Below, in pieces: positions 14,058 to 28,553 of a stretch of 33,254 nucleotides of DNA. This stretch comes from an uncultured Candidatus Peribacteria bacterium (GTDB taxonomy: Bacteria > Patescibacteriota > Gracilibacteria > Peribacterales > Peribacteraceae): NCBI GenBank assembly GCA_964502425.1, contig CAZCWV010000002.1, positions 1-33,254 of the forward strand, in the 5' to 3' direction. A program made the position numbers and the translations under genes. The stretch's first letter is position 1; each line of letters begins with the position of its first letter. The notes beneath the pieces are model-generated. The model was not told the DNA's origin and made no database searches. It saw only the letters and a list, made by a program, of their open reading frames with translations.

Positions 14058-14136
14058 GGAATGCAAAAATGGGAAATTGAAAATGGAAAATTTGGAACGT
14101 GGGGGGATACCTGCGTTCATTTTCAATTTTCCATTC
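14058..14136 (-). terminator. AT-rich imperfect hairpin built from GAAAATTG-like repeats; probable uvrA terminator
   Basis: On the minus strand, ggaaaattgaaaatg pairs with cattttcaatttcc and is followed by CATTTTTGC. The repeat array continues into the last uvrA codons (RKIEN*). Confidence 0.5.
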
Positions 14137-17100
14137 TCAATTTTCAATTTTCCTAGAATGAAGCACCTTCTTCAGATACTCACCGGTGTAGCTGCCCGGG
14201 GCCTTCGCCACCTCCTCCGGCGTGCCCTTGGCCACGATGCGCCCGCCGCCCGATCCGCCGTCCGGCCCCAAATCCACGATGTAGTCCACGCTCTTGAGGA
14301 TGTCCAGGTTATGCTCGATCACGAGGACGGTGTTCCCCTTGTCCACCAGGCGCTGGAGCACTTCGAGCAGGCGTTGGATGTCGTCGAAGTGCAGACCCGT
14401 CGTCGGCTCATCGAGGATGTAGAAGGTCCGTCCCGTGGCGCGCTTCGTCAGTTCCGTCGCCAGCTTGACGCGCTGCGCTTCGCCTCCCGAGAGGGTGGTG
14501 GCGCTCTGGCCCAGGTGGATGTAGCCGAGGCCCACGTCCTCCAGCGTCTGCAGCTTGTTCTTGATGGAGGGGATGGCGCCGAAGAACAGGAGTGATTCGC
14601 TGATCGTCATGTCCAGAACTTCCGCGATGTTCTTCCCCTTGTACGTCACTTCCAGCGTCTCGCGGTTGTAGCGCTTGCCGTGGCAACACTCGCACGTGAC
14701 GAAGACATCCGGGAGGAAGTGCATCTCGATGCGCTTGAGCCCGTCGCCCTCGCACTCCTCGCAGCGCCCGCCCTTGACGTTGAAGCTGAAGCGGCCGGCC
14801 TTGTACCCGCGCAGCTTGGCTTCCGGGGTGGTGGCGAAGATGTCGCGTACGTCGGTGAAGACGCCGGTGTAGGTGGCGGGGTTGCTGCGCGGCGTGCGGC
14901 CGATGGGGGATTGGTCAATGACGATGGCCTTGTCCAAATGCTCCAGGCCCTCGATGGCTTCCACGTCCTGCGGCCTGGCATGCGCCTTGTTGAGGATGTG
15001 GAGGAGTTCCGGTGCCAGGATGCCATGGATGAGGCTCGATTTTCCAGAGCCGGACACGCCGGAAATCCCGATGAACGCCCCCAGTGGGAACTCCACCGTG
15101 AGGTCCTGAAGGTTGTGGTGGCGCGCGCCACGGATGCGGACGGCATGGCCGTTGCCGCCGCGGCGCTCCGCGGGGATGGCGATGGCTTTCTTCCCGCCAA
15201 GGTACTGTCCCGTGACGGACCGCGGATTCTCGATGACTTCCGCGGGCGTTCCGGTGGCGATGATCTCGCCGCCGTACTTCCCCGCGCCCGGTCCGATCTC
15301 CAGCAGGTAGTCCGCGGAGGCTATGGTTTCCTCGTCGTGCTCCACCACGATGACAGTGTTCCCCAAGTCCCGGAGCTTCTTGAGGGTCTCGATGAGCCGC
15401 GCGTTGTCGCGCTGATGTAGGCCGATGGAAGGTTCGTCGAGGACGTAGAGGACGCCCTGGAGCGCCGAGCCGATCTGCGTCGCCAGGCGAATGCGTTGAG
15501 CCTCGCCGCCGCTGAGCGTGTTGGCGGAGCGCGAGAGCGTGAGGTACTTGAGCCCCACATTCTCGAGGAAGGAGAGGCGGGCGATGATCTCGTGGAGAAC
15601 CTTTTTGACGATGGCGTATTCGTAGGCCGTAAGGGTAGGGACGCCATGGCATGGCGTCCCTGTCGACGCAGACGCGCCATCGGCCGGTATGAGGTCCCGG
15701 AAGAAACTCTCGGCGCTCTCCACATCCATATCCGTCCCATCCACGATGTTCTTCCCCCCCACGGTCACGCCGAGAATTTCCTTCTTCAGGCGCTTGCCCC
15801 CGCACGACAGGCAGGGGAGTTCCAGCATGTACTCCTCGATCTGCATGCGGATGTAGCTGCTATCCGTCTCGGAGTGGCGGCGCTGGAGGTTGGGGAGCAC
15901 ACCTTCGTATGCCGTCTGGTACGTGCCGCCGAACTTGGCCGTATTGAAACTGATTTGCAGTTTTTCATCGTATCCCTGCAGGATGATGGCGCGGTGCTCG
16001 GGCGGGAGCTGCTCCCACGGCGTGTCCATGCTGAAGCCCACTTTCTCCGCGAGCGCTTCCAGGAGCTGTCCCGTGAAGCCGCTGCGGCTGGCGGAAGTGG
16101 CCCACGGATGGATAGCGCCCTCGGCGAGCGAGAGGCGGGGGTTGGGGATCACGGCGTGCTCGTCCACTTGAAGGATGGATCCCAACCCGTGGCATTGTTC
16201 ACATGCGCCGTGCGGCGAGTTGAAGGAGAAGCTGCGTGGCTCGATGTCCGGAACCGACGCTTCGGGGTGCTCGGGGCAGACGAAAGACTCCGAGAAGCGC
16301 GTCTCCGCGCCGCTGTCCGCGTCCAGCGCGATGAGTGATCCTTCGCCTTTCTTCAGCGCCAGTTCCACGGAGTCCGAGAGGCGCGTGCGGTTGGGATTGA
16401 TCGCTGCTCCCTCCTTCATATCCAAATCACGGACCACGAACCGGTCCACCACGATATGGATCGTATGCGCCTTCTTGGGGTCCAGCTTGATGTCCTCATC
16501 CACGGTCACGATCTGTCCGTCGATGCGCATGCGCACGAAGCCTTCGCGGCGGATGGCGTCCAGCACCTTCACGTGCTCGCCCTTCCGTCCTTCCACGATG
16601 GGTGCGAGGAGGAACACCTTTTTTCCCTCCGGCATGCGCGCGATGGTCTCCACGATCTGGCTTGCGGATTGCTTGCTGAGCTCCCGTCCGCACGTGGTGC
16701 AGTGCACCTTGCCCGTCTTCGCCCACAGCAGGCGCATGTAGTCATAGATTTCCGTCACGGTTCCCACCGTGGAGCGGGGGTTGCGCGGCGCGGTCTTCTG
16801 GTCAATGGAGATCGCGGGGCTCAACCCCTCGATGCTCTCCACTTCCGGCTTCTCCATCTGCGCGATGAACTGCCGCGCGTACGCCGAGAGGCTCTCCACG
16901 TACCGCCGCTGCCCCTCCGCGAAAATCGTGTCGAACGCCAGGGAGGATTTTCCCGATCCGGAGAGTCCCGTGATCACCGTCAGCTTGTTCCGGGGGATGG
17001 AGACGTTGATGTTCTTCAAGTTATGCATCTTGGCTCCCCGGATGACGATGGCGTCTTTCAGCGGAGCCTGCGGGGCGATGGATTGTTCCTTTGCCGGCGT

Positions 17101-17139
17101 CGTTCCATGCGCATCGGTCTTGTGGTCTTTCTTGGTCAT
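14137..17139 (-). CDS. uvrA: Excinuclease ABC subunit A
   Basis: [34 protein letters not shown], two ABC signatures LSGGEAQR, and Zn-finger Cys pairs. Start set at MTKKDHKT (ATG 17137-17139), which is preceded by a CT-rich tract. Confidence 0.95.
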
Positions 17140-17286
17140 AAGAGGGTGGATGCCGGAAGGCTGAAGAACAAAAAAATAGCCCCGCGGCGCGCGAGGGCTG
17201 AGCCTCGAGCTTATCATAAAAAATGCGCCATGTCTAGGGTTTAGGGGCTTCAGTGTGGGAAAAACCCGCATCGTATCGGCGAGTGT

Positions 17287-17314
17287 TTGACAAACAAAAA
17301 AAGACGGTTATTGT
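17287..17314 (+). promoter_or_regulatory. Sigma70-like promoter TTGACA-16 nt-TATTGT upstream of the dksA-like gene
   Basis: ttgaca at 17287-17292 and tattgt at 17309-17314. The ORF-track TTG start at 17287 coincides with the -35 box, so it is unlikely to be the real start. Confidence 0.45.
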
Positions 17315-17340
17315 TTCAATACATTCCTTCCCCCAATTCC

Positions 17341-17793
17341 ATGGTTCACAGGAAAAACGGTGCTGAGAGATTCCCTGTATCACAGACCATGGAGCGTCTG
17401 AACAGGGTAAAGAAGCAGATTGAACGCGATTCGTACACGTCAGACTTTGCTGTGGATGCCCATGGTGATGCATTTGACCTTGCGACGAGCGAGATTGCGG
17501 CAGAGATGGTCATTGGGACGGCGGAAGCCGCTTCGGAACAGCTTGCACGCATCAATGCGGCAATAGAACGTTGTCGCGCGGGGGTATATGGGGTTTGTGA
17601 AATGTGCGAGGGGAATATTCCTAAAGCAAGGTTAGATGCCCTGCCTTTTGCCACACGATGCGTGAAATGCCAGAGAGATGTGGAACGTGCTTCTGACATT
17701 GAAGAGCACAACGAACGTCCGATTAAGAACCACATGTTCGTATCAGTGGAAGAAGATCTTCCGGTTACGGATGAGCCGCAACAAGTCTGGTGA
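17341..17793 (+). CDS. dksA: DksA/TraR family C4 zinc-finger transcription factor
   Basis: CEMCEGNIPKARLDALPFATRCVKC (CxxC-x17-CxxC) and a coiled-coil tip motif DAFDLA (DxxDxA). Start chosen at ATG 17341 (preceded by ccttcccccaattcc), with an alternative ATG at 17389. Confidence 0.85.
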   Translation: MVHRKNGAERFPVSQTMERLNRVKKQIERDSYTSDFAVDAHGDAFDLATSEIAAEMVIGTAEAASEQLARINAAIERCRAGVYGVCEMCEGNIPKARLDALPFATRCVKCQRDVERASDIEEHNERPIKNHMFVSVEEDLPVTDEPQQVW

Positions 17794-17805
17794 TACCATG
17801 AGGCA

Positions 17806-18498
17806 GTGTTTACCGGCATCATCGAAGCAACGGCGGAAATAGTAAGGAATGACCATGGGAAGCTGACGATGCAGCGTCCCGCAAGCTTTGATGACCTTAA
17901 GCGCGGATCGAGCGTCTGCGTGTCCGGCGCGTGCTTGACGGTCACCACGCTCACGGAGAAGGAGATGGCGTTCGACGTGGTGCCCGAGACGCTCCGGAAG
18001 ACGTCACTGGGGGAAAAGAAGATTGGTGACCGTTTGAACCTCGAGCGCGCCCTCCCTGCTTCCGGCCGGTTCGACGGGCATATCGTTCAAGGGCATGTCG
18101 AAGGGGTTGGTGTTGTTGTTTCTCCCTCTCTCCTCACCTCTCCCCCGGGGGGGGAGAGGGATGTGTGTGTTTCTGTTGTTCCACAAGACAACCACAAAAC
18201 AAAAACATGCCCTTCCCCCATCGGGGGAAGGGTTAGGGAAGAGGGAAGACAAGCGAGCGTACTCATCATTCGTCCCTCTCGGGATCTTCTTCCATCCATC
18301 GTCTCCAAGGGTTCCATCACGCTCGATGGCGTATCGTTGACGGTGGTGGATACGACGAAGGATTCCTTCTCCGTCGCCCTCATTCCGACCACGTTGCGGG
18401 AGACGACCCTCGGACTTCTAGCAAAAGGCGACCGTGTGAACGTGGAAACGGATATACTGGGACGCTACGTTCGCCAATTCTCTTCCTCCCGACTATGA
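17806..18498 (+). CDS. ribE: Riboflavin synthase alpha chain, with a roughly 40-aa in-frame insertion
   Basis: MFTGIIE, GSSVCVSGACLTV, GHIVQGHVEGVG, KGSITLDGVSLTV. GTG start 12 nt after the dksA stop. The ATGA overlap with ribH joins the two genes. Confidence 0.9.
   Translation: MFTGIIEATAEIVRNDHGKLTMQRPASFDDLKRGSSVCVSGACLTVTTLTEKEMAFDVVPETLRKTSLGEKKIGDRLNLERALPASGRFDGHIVQGHVEGVGVVVSPSLLTSPPGGERDVCVSVVPQDNHKTKTCPSPIGGRVREEGRQASVLIIRPSRDLLPSIVSKGSITLDGVSLTVVDTTKDSFSVALIPTTLRETTLGLLAKGDRVNVETDILGRYVRQFSSSRL
18115..18255. mobile_element. Palindromic MITE/RPE-like element inserted in frame in ribE
   Basis: Two perfect 10-bp hairpins with 3-nt loops (cctctccccc/gggggagagg at 18137-18159; cccttccccc/gggggaaggg at 18210-18232). 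A GT/CA low-complexity core lies between them. The flanks are mutually complementary (ttgtttctccctctctcc versus ggaagagggaagacaa). Confidence 0.6.
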
Positions 18499-18956
18499 AA
18501 CAAGAAACAGTTCCCTTCGCCGGCCCCATCAACCATGCGTGGCGCATCGGCATCGTCCACTCGTCTTACTATAAGGAGGAGACCGACCGGCTGGTGGCGG
18601 GGGCCGTGCGTCTTCTCCGGGAGAGCGGCATCAATGCCTCAAACATCGTCACCATTGCTGCCCCCGGTTCCTTCGAGATTCCGCTCCTGGGAGCGGAGCT
18701 TGCGCGCACCAAGCAGGTGGATGCGCTCATCGGGATTGGGATCATCGTGGAGGGCGAGACGCATCACGCGCGCCTCATCGCCGAAGCGGTAACGCAAGGC
18801 ATGATGGACGTGCAGGTGCGCTACGGCGTCCCCTTTGCTTTCGAAGTCCTGTACGTGGACAACCTCGCCCTCGCCCGCGCGCGCCTGGACAGGGGAGAAG
18901 AAGCCGCGCGTGCTGTTCTACAATCCCTTGCGCATTTGAGACAGATACAGTCTTGA
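18495..18956 (+). CDS. ribH: 6,7-dimethyl-8-ribityllumazine synthase
   Basis: RIGIVHSSYY, APGSFEIPL, ALIGIGIIVEGETHH, VPFAFEVL. Confidence 0.9.
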   Translation: MKQETVPFAGPINHAWRIGIVHSSYYKEETDRLVAGAVRLLRESGINASNIVTIAAPGSFEIPLLGAELARTKQVDALIGIGIIVEGETHHARLIAEAVTQGMMDVQVRYGVPFAFEVLYVDNLALARARLDRGEEAARAVLQSLAHLRQIQS

Positions 18957-20386: not shown

Positions 20387-20603
20387 GATCGAGTGGGGGT
20401 GTGGGTCGTTCTCGCGTCGGATGGATGCCGAGGATGCCGACGATTCCGAAGAGCAGTCTTGTCGGAGGTTATATTCGTAGAATGGCCGCTCCTCGGCATC
20501 GCCAGCCCGCCCGAAGCTCGCAAGCGAAGGAGGGTCGGTTTCCTCGGCATCTTTCCTCAAAACTCCTCTTCCCGAGGTCCACTTCGGTTATACTATTGCT
20601 TCC

Positions 20604-26562: not shown

Positions 26563-26804
26563 CGTAAAATTGCGCGCAGCGAAGCGAGCCGCATATTTTA
26601 CGTGGGACGTGGCGGCGCAGCCGCTTTACGTCCCCGCGCGCAATCACGTGGCGCCGCCATCAGCACAACCCAAGGTTCAATAATTTCTAACCTGCTCCAG
26701 TATTGAGTACCAGCATTAGCGAGTAGAGAATAACGGAACGAAATCCCAAAGTTTCCTCCGAGGCCCCGGGTTCGGGGGTACTCCTCTTGGTATATACTCT
26801 TCTT

Positions 26805-27155
26805 ATGCCTCTCAACGACGATGACCTCGACGAATCCCTCAGCAGCCGCAAGGCGCTCGAGCGGTCCGATCATGGCAAGCAGGAAAAGAAGGAGCAGAAG
26901 GTGAAGCAGGAGCACGGGAAGCAATTGAAAGAACTCCAGCTTCAGGTGCTCAAGCAGCAGGTGGCGCCGGGGAAGGCGGAGGAGGGCGGGAAGGAAGAGG
27001 GGATTAAAACCCGGACGCGGGAGGAGGAAGCGCGGCAGAGCATGGATACCGTCCGGTCGAAGCCCGATCCCGAGACGATGATCAAGAAGGAGGAGCAGGA
27101 GGCGGCGGCGGAGAAGCAGGCGCCGTATGAGAAGGGGAAGGATCAGACGGCGTGA
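26805..27155 (+). CDS. Lys/Glu-rich, probably disordered, 116-aa protein
   Basis: MPLNDDDLDESL...KQEKKEQKVKQEHGKQLKELQ. ATG 26805 is preceded by a CT-rich tract. The track start is a TTG at 26787. Confidence 0.55.
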   Translation: MPLNDDDLDESLSSRKALERSDHGKQEKKEQKVKQEHGKQLKELQLQVLKQQVAPGKAEEGGKEEGIKTRTREEEARQSMDTVRSKPDPETMIKKEEQEAAAEKQAPYEKGKDQTA

Positions 27156-27158
27156 CGA

Positions 27159-27284
27159 GCGGAAAGCTATAAGCGGAAAGCGGTAAGCTCTTCTACTTTT
27201 TGATGCCGTAGCGATTATTCTCAATATGCATACAGCTTAAGTCTTACCGCTTATAGCTTATCGCTTACAGTTTAGAGCTTACAT
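27159..27284. repeat. Inverted pair of tandem heptamer arrays, (GCGGWAA)x4 and (CTTAYNG)x7
   Basis: gcggaaa gctataa gcggaaa gcggtaa at 27159-27186. cttaagt cttaccg cttatag cttatcg cttacag tttagag cttacat at 27236-27284. The arms are mutually complementary. Confidence 0.85.
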
Positions 27285-27323
27285 CTTCGCTTATTGCCGA
27301 TTCATGTTTATACTGCCGTAAAC

Positions 27324-28079
27324 ATGACAACAGCCCTCTACACCCTCGGCAGCGTTGTCCTCGTCAGCGCTTTGTCGCTGGTCGGCGCGGCGTTCCTCTT
27401 TCTGGGCGAAAAGACGCTGCGGGGGATCCTCCTCTACCTCGTCAGTTTCTCCTCGGGCGCGTTGCTCGGCGACGTCTTCATCCACATGGTGCCGGAGATG
27501 GCGGAGGGAGGGGATTTGACCTCGAGCCTCGTGATCGTTCTCGTTGGCATCGCGTTCTCCTTCGCGGTGGAGAAGGTCATTCACTGGCGCCACTGCCACT
27601 TCCTCCCGGAGGATGACCGGAAGCACGAGCACTGCCACGATGCGGGGACGATGAGCCTTGTGGGGGACAGCGTCCACAACTTCATCGACGGCCTCGCCAT
27701 CGCCTCCAGCTACCTCGTGAGCGTGCCGGTGGGGATCTCCACCACGATCGCGGTGGTCTTCCACGAGATTCCCGACGAGATGGGGAATTTCGCCGTGCTC
27801 CTCCACAGCGGGTACAGCAGGCGGAAGGCGCTCCTCTTCAACTTTCTCTCGGCGCTCGTGGCCGTGGCGGGGGCGGTCCTCGTCCTCGTCGGCAGCAGGG
27901 CGTTTGTGCCGCTCAACGCCTACCTCCTTCCCTTCGCCGCGGGGAACCTGCTCTACATCGCGGGGACGGACCTCATCCCGGAACTCCACAAGGAAATGCG
28001 CATCACATCTTCCTTCTTCCAACTCGTGATGATGGTGGCGGGGATGGGGGTGATGGGAGCGATGCTGCTGTTGGACTGA
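27324..28079 (+). CDS. zupT: ZIP family metal (zinc) transporter
   Basis: FHEIPDEMGNFAVLL signature, HNFIDGLAI, and multiple TM helices. Start set at MTTALYTLGS. Confidence 0.9.
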   Translation: MTTALYTLGSVVLVSALSLVGAAFLFLGEKTLRGILLYLVSFSSGALLGDVFIHMVPEMAEGGDLTSSLVIVLVGIAFSFAVEKVIHWRHCHFLPEDDRKHEHCHDAGTMSLVGDSVHNFIDGLAIASSYLVSVPVGISTTIAVVFHEIPDEMGNFAVLLHSGYSRRKALLFNFLSALVAVAGAVLVLVGSRAFVPLNAYLLPFAAGNLLYIAGTDLIPELHKEMRITSSFFQLVMMVAGMGVMGAMLLLD

Positions 28080-28229
28080 GCGGCTGCTGTCCCTTTTTCC
28101 ATAGGTCTCTGTGACCCAGGAAGTGCAATATGTATCTGAACCTATGCAGGAGTGAATGTGGTTTCGGTGTTGACTGCAGTAGCGGTCTTCGTGAAAATCA
28201 TTGCCTATTCCCATTGAAACTCCCGAAGC

Positions 28230-28553
28230 ATGGAAGCAACGGAAATGGAAAGCCAGGGCACCGATCTGTACGAGGCGTATTGCCAGTTTGTCCAAGAAAG
28301 CGGCAATGCGATCGCATCGCAGTGGTCCTGTGCAGCGAGTCGCGCACAGTTTCTCGCGGCGAATTCACCTTTACCACGCAGGGAGTTCGAGCGGCTTTTC
28401 CTGGCAATGCCTCATGGGACGCAACTGGCTTTTGCCCGACGCATGCGTTGTGGATTCGATGTCGCAGTTGTTACTGAATCAAGGAACGTCGTCGGGCTGG
28501 TCATGAGAAACCTTCTCCTCAATGGCGGAGAGGCCGAGGGCGTCGAGGAATAG
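28230..28553 (+). CDS. Hypothetical 107-aa protein
   Basis: ORF with plausible amino-acid composition in a lower-GC stretch. No motifs recognised. Confidence 0.4.
   Translation: MEATEMESQGTDLYEAYCQFVQESGNAIASQWSCAASRAQFLAANSPLPRREFERLFLAMPHGTQLAFARRMRCGFDVAVVTESRNVVGLVMRNLLLNGGEAEGVEE

Follow-up and report, generated by a model that had tools for sequence, protein, structure and literature searches.

A palindromic in-frame insert in the riboflavin synthase gene of a Candidatus Peribacteria bacterium is probably a nuclease-less miniature of a DUF559 cassette family

The riboflavin synthase gene (ribE) of an uncultured Candidatus Peribacteria bacterium contains a palindromic segment which is read in frame as part of the enzyme, raising the question of what this segment is and how it came to lie within the gene. 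We analysed a window of 33,254 nt, the whole stretch of DNA under study, in which ribE occupies positions 17806–18498 on the + strand (ORF list; 230 aa, GTG start). Pfam identified two Lum_binding domains in the encoded protein, which scored 195 bits against the NCBIfam riboflavin synthase equivalog (cut-off 155 bits), and the gene is otherwise intact. The initial annotation, made from the letters alone, had proposed that RibE carries about 40 extra residues after the GHVEGVG motif, and both structure and ortholog alignments bore this out. When compared to solved RibE structures in the PDB, residues ~107–159 of the window protein face only ~16 residues, and the segment lying between GHVEGVG and KGS is 65 aa long compared with 22–29 aa in uninterrupted orthologs, which amounts to ~37–42 extra residues.

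With boundaries refined by the family models described below, the whole element spans 18119–18249 (+, ~131 nt) and consists of two inverted termini and a spacer, with no nuclease ORF. It is read in the ribE frame as roughly residues 106–148, DVCVSVVPQDNHK being an example of the peptide encoded across it. A nested palindrome with two perfect 10-bp C/G hairpins had been described here and was confirmed, with 50-nt arms (18123–18172 and 18197–18246) which are 76% complementary and thus form an imperfect palindrome. The left terminus (18119–18163, −) comprises an outer inverted repeat, which pairs as TTTCTCCCTCTCTCC / GGGAAGAGGGAAGA with that of the other end, and the hairpin CCTCTCCCCC-GGG-GGGGGAGAGG (18137–18159, +), which encodes SPPGGER. 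The right terminus (18206–18249, +) comprises the hairpin CCCTTCCCCC-ATC-GGGGGAAGGG (18210–18232, +), which encodes PSPIGGR, followed by TTAGGGAAGAGGGAAGA, for comparison with which the family consensus is GGAGGAGGGGTTAGGGGTGGAGG. Between the termini lies a GT-rich/CA-rich spacer of 42 nt (18164–18205, +) with a small central stem-loop at 18175–18192; it fills the place of a DUF559 ORF of ~400 nt. The predicted RNA fold of 18105–18265 has an energy of −82.2 kcal/mol, compared with −56.5 ± 4.4 kcal/mol for dinucleotide shuffles (z = −5.8, 0/200). Five perfect hairpins of at least 9 bp were found in the window where 1.0 would be expected, two of which are those of the ribE element. As had been claimed, the insert contains no stop codon in the ribE frame; four of the six reading frames are open across it. 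A palindrome search and both terminus models found no second copy of the element in the 33-kb window.

The RibE proteins nearest to that of the window belong to Peribacteraceae/Peregrinibacteria (CPR), and many of these orthologs are 330–390 aa long and contain a PF04480 (DUF559) domain between the two RibE barrels. This domain was found at the same loop in P0002 (85% identity to the window RibE in the best local BLASTP alignment, which covered 40% of the query), P0003, P0004, P0007 and more than 15 other proteins, and a full cassette lies in frame at this loop in more than 20 Peribacteria orthologs. Alignments with P0002 (locus L001), P0003 (L002) and P0004 (L004) placed the insertion site in the RibE beta-hairpin loop after GHVEGVG-VVVS. 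Uninterrupted orthologs of 185–198 aa were also found. The gene order uvrA-dksA-ribE-ribH-SLH is common to the window, L001, L002 and L004, and one carrier of the full cassette, L001, is ~95% identical to the window in the neighbouring genes. In L001 the DUF559 ORF is bounded on the left by TCCTCTATCCCCCTG and CCCCTTTCCCC-GGG-GGGGAAAGGGG and on the right by CCCCCTCTCC-TCC-GGAGAGGGGG and CTAGGGGGAGAGG; its architecture is that of the window plus a central nuclease gene, with an outer inverted repeat and a 10–11 bp hairpin at each end. The left terminus of the window is collinear with the left end of L001 and the two have the hairpin centre CCCCGGGGGGG in common, while the right hairpin is read in different frames in the window and in L001 (PSPIGGRVREEG vs SPSPPERGLGGEG), indicating that the DNA is conserved and not the peptide. 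A copy without a nuclease was found at the same RibE site of another Peribacteraceae genome (L085), where a left end is separated by a 36-nt spacer from a canonical right end (52 bits). The spacers of L085 and the window have ACAACCACAAA.CA..CAT in common, the 3′ part of the window spacer (ACAACCACAAAACA..CAT) being similar to the subterminal sequence of L085, and a solo terminus without a nuclease was found at this site in L087. The initial annotation had named a normal, non-palindromic and conserved segment in close orthologs as the case that would speak against its reading; this is not what the orthologs show, and a third outcome was found instead, in which the same palindromic ends occupy this RibE site and enclose a nuclease domain.

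These orthologs also bear on the possibility that the palindrome arose as an artefact, through misassembly or a chimera. Foldback artefacts can create palindromes and the window is represented by one contig only. However, homologous termini occur at the same ribE codon position in independent assemblies (ENA, NCBI, JGI and Logan) and the imperfect arms are unlike an exact foldback, leaving an artefact scarcely credible. It should also be noted that unrelated short inserts occupy the same RibE loop in P0013, P0026, P0115, P0116 and P0090 (e.g. HPERSRRATRGCKRGLDFAHPD, ELRVTSVPETRNPKPET and KTPISKTPNNVQIPKFK), and from these alignments the loop (window residues 107–149) may be a general hotspot for small insertions.

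We defined the family of hairpin-ended, in-frame DUF559 cassettes in the present analysis. A full cassette consists of a terminus, a DUF559 nuclease ORF of ~110 aa and an inverted terminus. The consensus across the Peribacteria loci is TTCCTCCATCCCCC-rr-CCCCTTCCTCC-nnn-GGAGGAAGGGG for the left terminus and CCCCTCCTCC-nnn-GGAGGAGGGG-TTAGGGGTGGAGG for the right one, where the hairpin is followed by TTAGGGG. The termini form inverted repeats of one another, the outer repeat extending to TTTCC, and alignments across loci showed that they are strongly conserved irrespective of the host gene. Covariance models of the right end (R1) and the left end (R2) were built without the window. R1 matched both window termini, at 18119–18163 (−) with 37.2 bits (E = 5e−8) and at 18206–18249 (+) with 36.3 bits (E = 8.7e−8), and R2 matched the right one at 18208–18249 (−) with 28.6 bits (E = 5.6e−6). 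Elsewhere in the 33 kb neither model found anything, the next matches being above E = 0.01. Three double-change pairs were counted per hairpin, with ~99% pairing, among loci which had been preselected for having the hairpin; these covariation counts were discounted for that reason, and template-switch correction in quasi-palindromes could mimic the pattern.

Among the 83 loci searched, R1 recovered DUF559-flanking termini in many, and the loci with such termini beside DUF559 include Anaerolineae, Cyclobacteriaceae, Saccharibacteria and some proteobacteria. Nuclease-less head-to-head doublets and solo ends were also recovered. One such doublet lies in frame in MetH of Anaerolineae, just upstream of the RFVAGSIGP motif, and L070 and L056 carry in-frame doublets or solo ends in MetH. 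The genes hosting cassettes in frame encode RibE, RsmG/GidB, TsaD, a Mur ligase, RibD, GT4 glycosyltransferases, CofE, PyrF and PheT, further hosts being MetH and a PduO-type adenosyltransferase, and several restriction-modification enzymes are among the proteins with an embedded DUF559 domain. The individual loci vary in several respects. In L015 (413–560; protein P0128) the cassette is followed by additional copies of the right terminus in tandem, which give repeated GEGLGVGEV / EEGLGVEV peptides. In L007 (2915–3400) the sequences CTGACCCTG ... CAGGGTCAG enclose the cassette, which thus lies at the middle of a short palindrome, and an ATG is found directly upstream. The inverted repeat of L013 reaches ~35 nt into GT-rich/CA-rich sequence (GTTTTGTTTGATGTTTGTGTT / CAGCAAACAAAAC), and in the window similar sequence lies within the spacer. 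A class-I aminoacyl-tRNA synthetase of 1455 aa in L004 (1–232, the gene running off the locus) has a His_Phos_1 match between its tRNA-synt_1 matches, and this histidine phosphatase domain may be another domain insertion into a housekeeping enzyme in Peribacteraceae.

When the DUF559 domain by itself was used as query, a word-indexed protein search gave no matches, missing even P0002, and an exhaustive search of representative proteins was used instead, with a profile built from 18 RibE-hosted DUF559 cores. At E ≤ 0.001 the profile matched 43,318 representative clusters, and in 32 of the best 149 of these matches the domain lay embedded between flanks of at least 70 aa each. The top match, P0121 (377 aa), contains three tandem DUF559 domains. 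In the PDB the profile matched 3hrl, a DUF559 protein (E = 3e−25), and 3r3p, which is the I-Bth0305I catalytic domain; I-Bth0305I is the founding member of the EDxHD/Vsr-like homing endonucleases (PMC3239194, PMC3384342). Across the 18 cores D46, E57 and D59 are invariant and H63 is nearly so; judged against published family descriptions (PMC3384342), these would be the Vsr/EDxHD active-site residues. In a neighbour-joining tree of the DUF559 cores with 100 bootstraps, support was found only for shallow pairs from the same host gene (RibE-RibE), and as the deep nodes are unsupported the tree neither shows nor excludes movement between genes. DUF559 paralogs from the same genome are 53–78% identical in CPR, giving no sign of recent bursts.

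No DUF559 domain was found in any of the six frames of the window by hmmsearch, and the EDxHD/Vsr-like catalytic core is likewise absent from the window copy. The 42 nt between the termini, together with the absence of DUF559, indicate a miniature, non-autonomous family member. Our comparisons demonstrate that the ribE segment belongs to the cassette family, lies at the identical insertion site, lacks the nuclease and leaves the ribE frame intact, and we conclude that it is probably a miniature, nuclease-less derivative of these hairpin-ended insertion cassettes. Judged by its sequence, the window copy would be a relic or a non-autonomous cassette member. We found no description of DUF559 cassettes with hairpin termini in the open-access literature, and the family appears to be undescribed.

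The palindromic doublet architecture is like that of MITEs and of REPIN-like doublets, and doublets without a nuclease exist inside other genes, such as the MetH genes of Anaerolineae; both would also fit a free-living MITE/RPE-like repeat which transposed into ribE alone, independently of any nuclease cassette at the site. The same can be said of the window termini, which are unlike those of the close relative while their stems are still perfect, as would fit the arrival of a different variant better than local decay. We nevertheless consider such a transposition unlikely. It is this exact loop that holds the full cassette in more than 20 orthologs, with ends that are collinear with those of the window, and the element occurs as a single copy in the 33-kb window. 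Two metagenome scans, with a 21-mer from the spacer and right end and with a degenerate 33-mer from the left ribE flank, gave 0 matches, and hence neither sibling copies nor allelic contigs. Terminal inverted repeats shared with a protein-coding parent, as in MITEs, are present; however, neither in the window nor in 14 loci is the element bordered by a direct repeat, so that a target-site duplication is absent, and no target consensus was found either. The last point against transposition is the gradient of identity in the flanks, which indicates homologous exchange of an occupied allele and not transposition into an empty site.

This gradient was seen when the window was compared to L001. The uvrA and ribH genes of the two are 94.8% identical (93–99% per 100 nt), while in the flanks of the element (17917–18571) identity per 100 nt falls on the left, moving inward, from 93 to 80, 74 and 69%, and rises on the right, moving outward, from 56 to 63, 79, 88 and 94%. 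Many of the flank differences are synonymous. The 3′ flank is a mosaic, in which the window is closer to L002 and L004 than L001 is, and pairs of loci which both have the full cassette show no dip in identity. The termini of the window and L001 are only 58–67% identical, yet both have perfect stems; those of L001 and L002 are ~91% identical (counted by eye), and their nuclease cores 59%. With termini at 58–67% and uvrA and ribH at ~95%, a simple recent deletion in situ is unlikely, and a recent local deletion from an L001-type cassette was rejected as the origin of the window copy. The symmetric fall in identity towards the element suggests that alleles were exchanged by recombination, and the pattern is what might be expected if an occupied allele had been exchanged by homologous recombination with co-conversion of the flanks, as in homing; local error-prone repair is an alternative source of the flank divergence. 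Upstream of ribE, a block covering a dksA/traR-type zinc-finger gene (17222–17816) is ~50% identical to L001 with sharp edges, the sides being 93–98% identical, as if a divergent allele had replaced the entire gene.

Other palindromes were observed in the window. A second in-frame palindrome (15630–15690) lies in an extra segment of uvrA (ORF 14137–17271, −) and contains a perfect 11-bp hairpin, AGGGACGCCAT-GGC-ATGGCGTCCCT, at 15637–15661; the same uvrA site in L001, the 95% identical relative, has a different C/G terminus-like hairpin (L001:112–159, 31 bits), and the 100-nt stretch around the hairpin is only 59% identical between the two. An AT-rich imperfect palindrome at 14066–14151, with 27-nt arms which are 89% complementary (AAAATGGGAAATTGAAAATGGAAAATT), overlaps uvrA at its 3′ end; it may form a long hairpin like that of a terminator. 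Another imperfect palindrome (27158–27265; 32-nt arms, 81% complementary) is made of AGCGGAAAGC/TATAAGCGG-type units and spans the 5′ end of ORF 26598–27224 (−) and the gap before ORF 27291–28295 (−). Downstream of the SLH-domain gene lies an inverted repeat with 23-nt arms (20419–20556), within which positions 20442–20541 are only 50% identical to L001, compared with ~90–100% elsewhere.

Structure models were examined for the consequences of the insert for the protein. In the AlphaFold model of the window RibE the core has a pLDDT above 90 and both barrels are confident, while the insert (109–150) is coil, with a pLDDT below 50 for residues 117–146, and is bounded by strands at 97–108 and 151–157. 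The ~40-residue insert is thus predicted to be disordered and to lie at the tip of a beta-hairpin, so that the surface-loop location which the initial annotation had put forward for checking agrees with the model, from which the placement is taken. For P0002 the model is confident in the two RibE barrels as well as in the DUF559 domain, and only the linkers encoded by the termini are below 50. This confinement of disorder to the terminus-encoded stretches suggests that the termini act as linker-coding sequences, and RibE-DUF559 chimeras are predicted to be foldable.

The perfect stems, the very stable predicted RNA structure, the location between the two Lum_binding repeats and the intact remainder of ribE might suggest that the insert is kept for the benefit of the host, either as a functional surface loop of RibE or as an mRNA hairpin which tunes translation or stability between the barrel halves. 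This is highly improbable, as the content of the loop varies among orthologs (nothing, a nuclease domain or unrelated short inserts), the differing frame of the right hairpin from that of L001 leaves the peptide unconserved, the loop is predicted to be disordered and the same termini occur in unrelated genes. Removal of the segment before the mature protein is formed, as an intron, an intein or a translational bypass element, was also considered: the pairing ends could bring the halves of ribE together in RNA, and GC-rich palindromes are bypassed during translation in the mitochondria of yeast relatives. We regard removal as extremely doubtful. No match was obtained from Rfam, intron and ribozyme families included, at gathering thresholds, and an intron was rejected on this basis; a permissive search gave only microRNA-hairpin families, at no more than 29 bits against cut-offs of 51.8–142 bits. 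Pfam found only Lum_binding in the window RibE, with DUF559 in addition in relatives, and no Hint/intein domain. An intein was rejected on this ground, and inspection of the aligned orthologs by eye revealed no evident conserved Cys/Ser...His-Asn+Cys/Ser/Thr junctions. Furthermore, the frame is open in every full cassette and the nuclease domain is conserved.

We compared the element and its family to known systems of mobile and repetitive DNA. Rickettsia palindromic elements (RPEs), to which the initial annotation had likened the insert, are palindromic repeats of ~100–150 bp found in frame in unrelated housekeeping genes and translated, as summarised in PMC10969869 from Ogata et al. (2000, 2002), and that summary describes their extra peptides as compatible with the fold of the host protein. 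The window element is also palindromic, in this size range and in frame, and by its structure model forms a disordered loop. However, its host belongs to another phylum, no kinship at the sequence level would be expected, and whereas RPEs have no known associated nuclease or autonomous parent, the window-type termini flank DUF559 in relatives. Membership of the RPE family was rejected on the basis of the Peribacteria host, the single copy in the window and the published description of RPEs. What stands of the earlier reading is a selfish-type, in-frame palindrome in a loop; the RPE label holds as an analogy only, the element belonging to a different family. The initial annotation is therefore partly supported: it named the correct type of element but gave an incomplete account of it.

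By its match to 3r3p, the full-cassette nuclease is homologous to the catalytic domain of the EDxHD/Vsr-like homing endonucleases, and the divergence of the flanks is of the kind expected from co-conversion during homing. Known EDxHD members are found in group I introns or inteins or are free-standing, and have an extra DNA-binding region (PMC3239194, PMC3384342). In contrast, the cassette has no intron or intein, its ORF forms an in-frame fusion with the host protein, and it has conserved inverted termini containing hairpins, which homing genes do not need. The nearest published arrangement that we found in the open-access literature is the ShiLan insertion in a phage DNA methylase, which is associated with an endonuclease and is neither an intron nor an intein (PMC11855218). 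Like the cassettes, it has no stop codon in the frame of its host gene and is predicted to loop out from the encoded protein, but it has a phage host and its HNH nuclease lies in another frame, whereas the cassette nuclease shares the frame of its host gene; the cassette family also has hairpin termini and miniature derivatives. REP/REPIN-RAYT systems also consist of short GC-rich hairpins arranged as inverted doublets, with the same repeats flanking a single nuclease or transposase gene (PMC3733652, PMC8049555, PMC10969869). However, REPs lie outside genes and are paired with a Y1 (HUH) transposase, while the cassettes are intragenic and in frame with a DUF559 partner of the PD-(D/E)xK fold, and membership of the REP/REPIN-RAYT group was rejected on the intragenic position and the associated protein. 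MITEs resemble the window element in being non-autonomous miniatures with the termini of a protein-coding parent (PMC3733652, PMC8049555, PMC10969869), but they are derived from IS elements and usually have target-site duplications.

From these observations we propose the following mechanism. Being in frame, the cassette would most likely be expressed when the host mRNA is read through, giving a domain inserted into a loop, and its C-rich/G-rich termini would encode Pro/Ser- and Gly/Glu-rich disordered linkers. The nuclease would set off recombination at or near the insertion site. The miniature would have been derived from a full cassette through loss of the ORF, and homologous recombination may have brought either the miniature allele into the genome of the window or the full allele into that of its relative, co-converting a few hundred bases of the flanking ribE in the manner of homing elements. 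Going by the reading frame and the integrity of the gene, the window insert is probably transcribed and translated with RibE as a floppy loop of ~40 residues which presumably does nothing for the host. Taken together, DUF559 may be the nuclease of widespread selfish cassettes which have hairpin-containing inverted repeats at their ends, lie in frame in essential genes of CPR bacteria, Chloroflexota and others, are expressed as inserted domains with the termini doubling as flexible linkers, spread or persist by recombination triggered by the nuclease and decay to REPIN-like palindromic miniatures such as that of the window. We put forward this combined reading tentatively, rating it somewhat short of an even chance.

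If true, this reading would assign a biological role to a very common domain, DUF559, whose function is unknown, and would add to introns and inteins a third way in which a nuclease gene can lie inside an essential gene without killing it, namely in-frame insertion into a loop with built-in linker-coding ends. It would also account for the recurrent Pro/Gly-rich peptides of the SPLPxGEGxGV type in the CPR and Anaerolineae proteins examined. RibE, TsaD, RsmG and MetH offer naturally validated permissive sites and linkers for domain insertion, and in annotation such inserts should be taken neither as enzyme-specific features nor as signs of a pseudogene.
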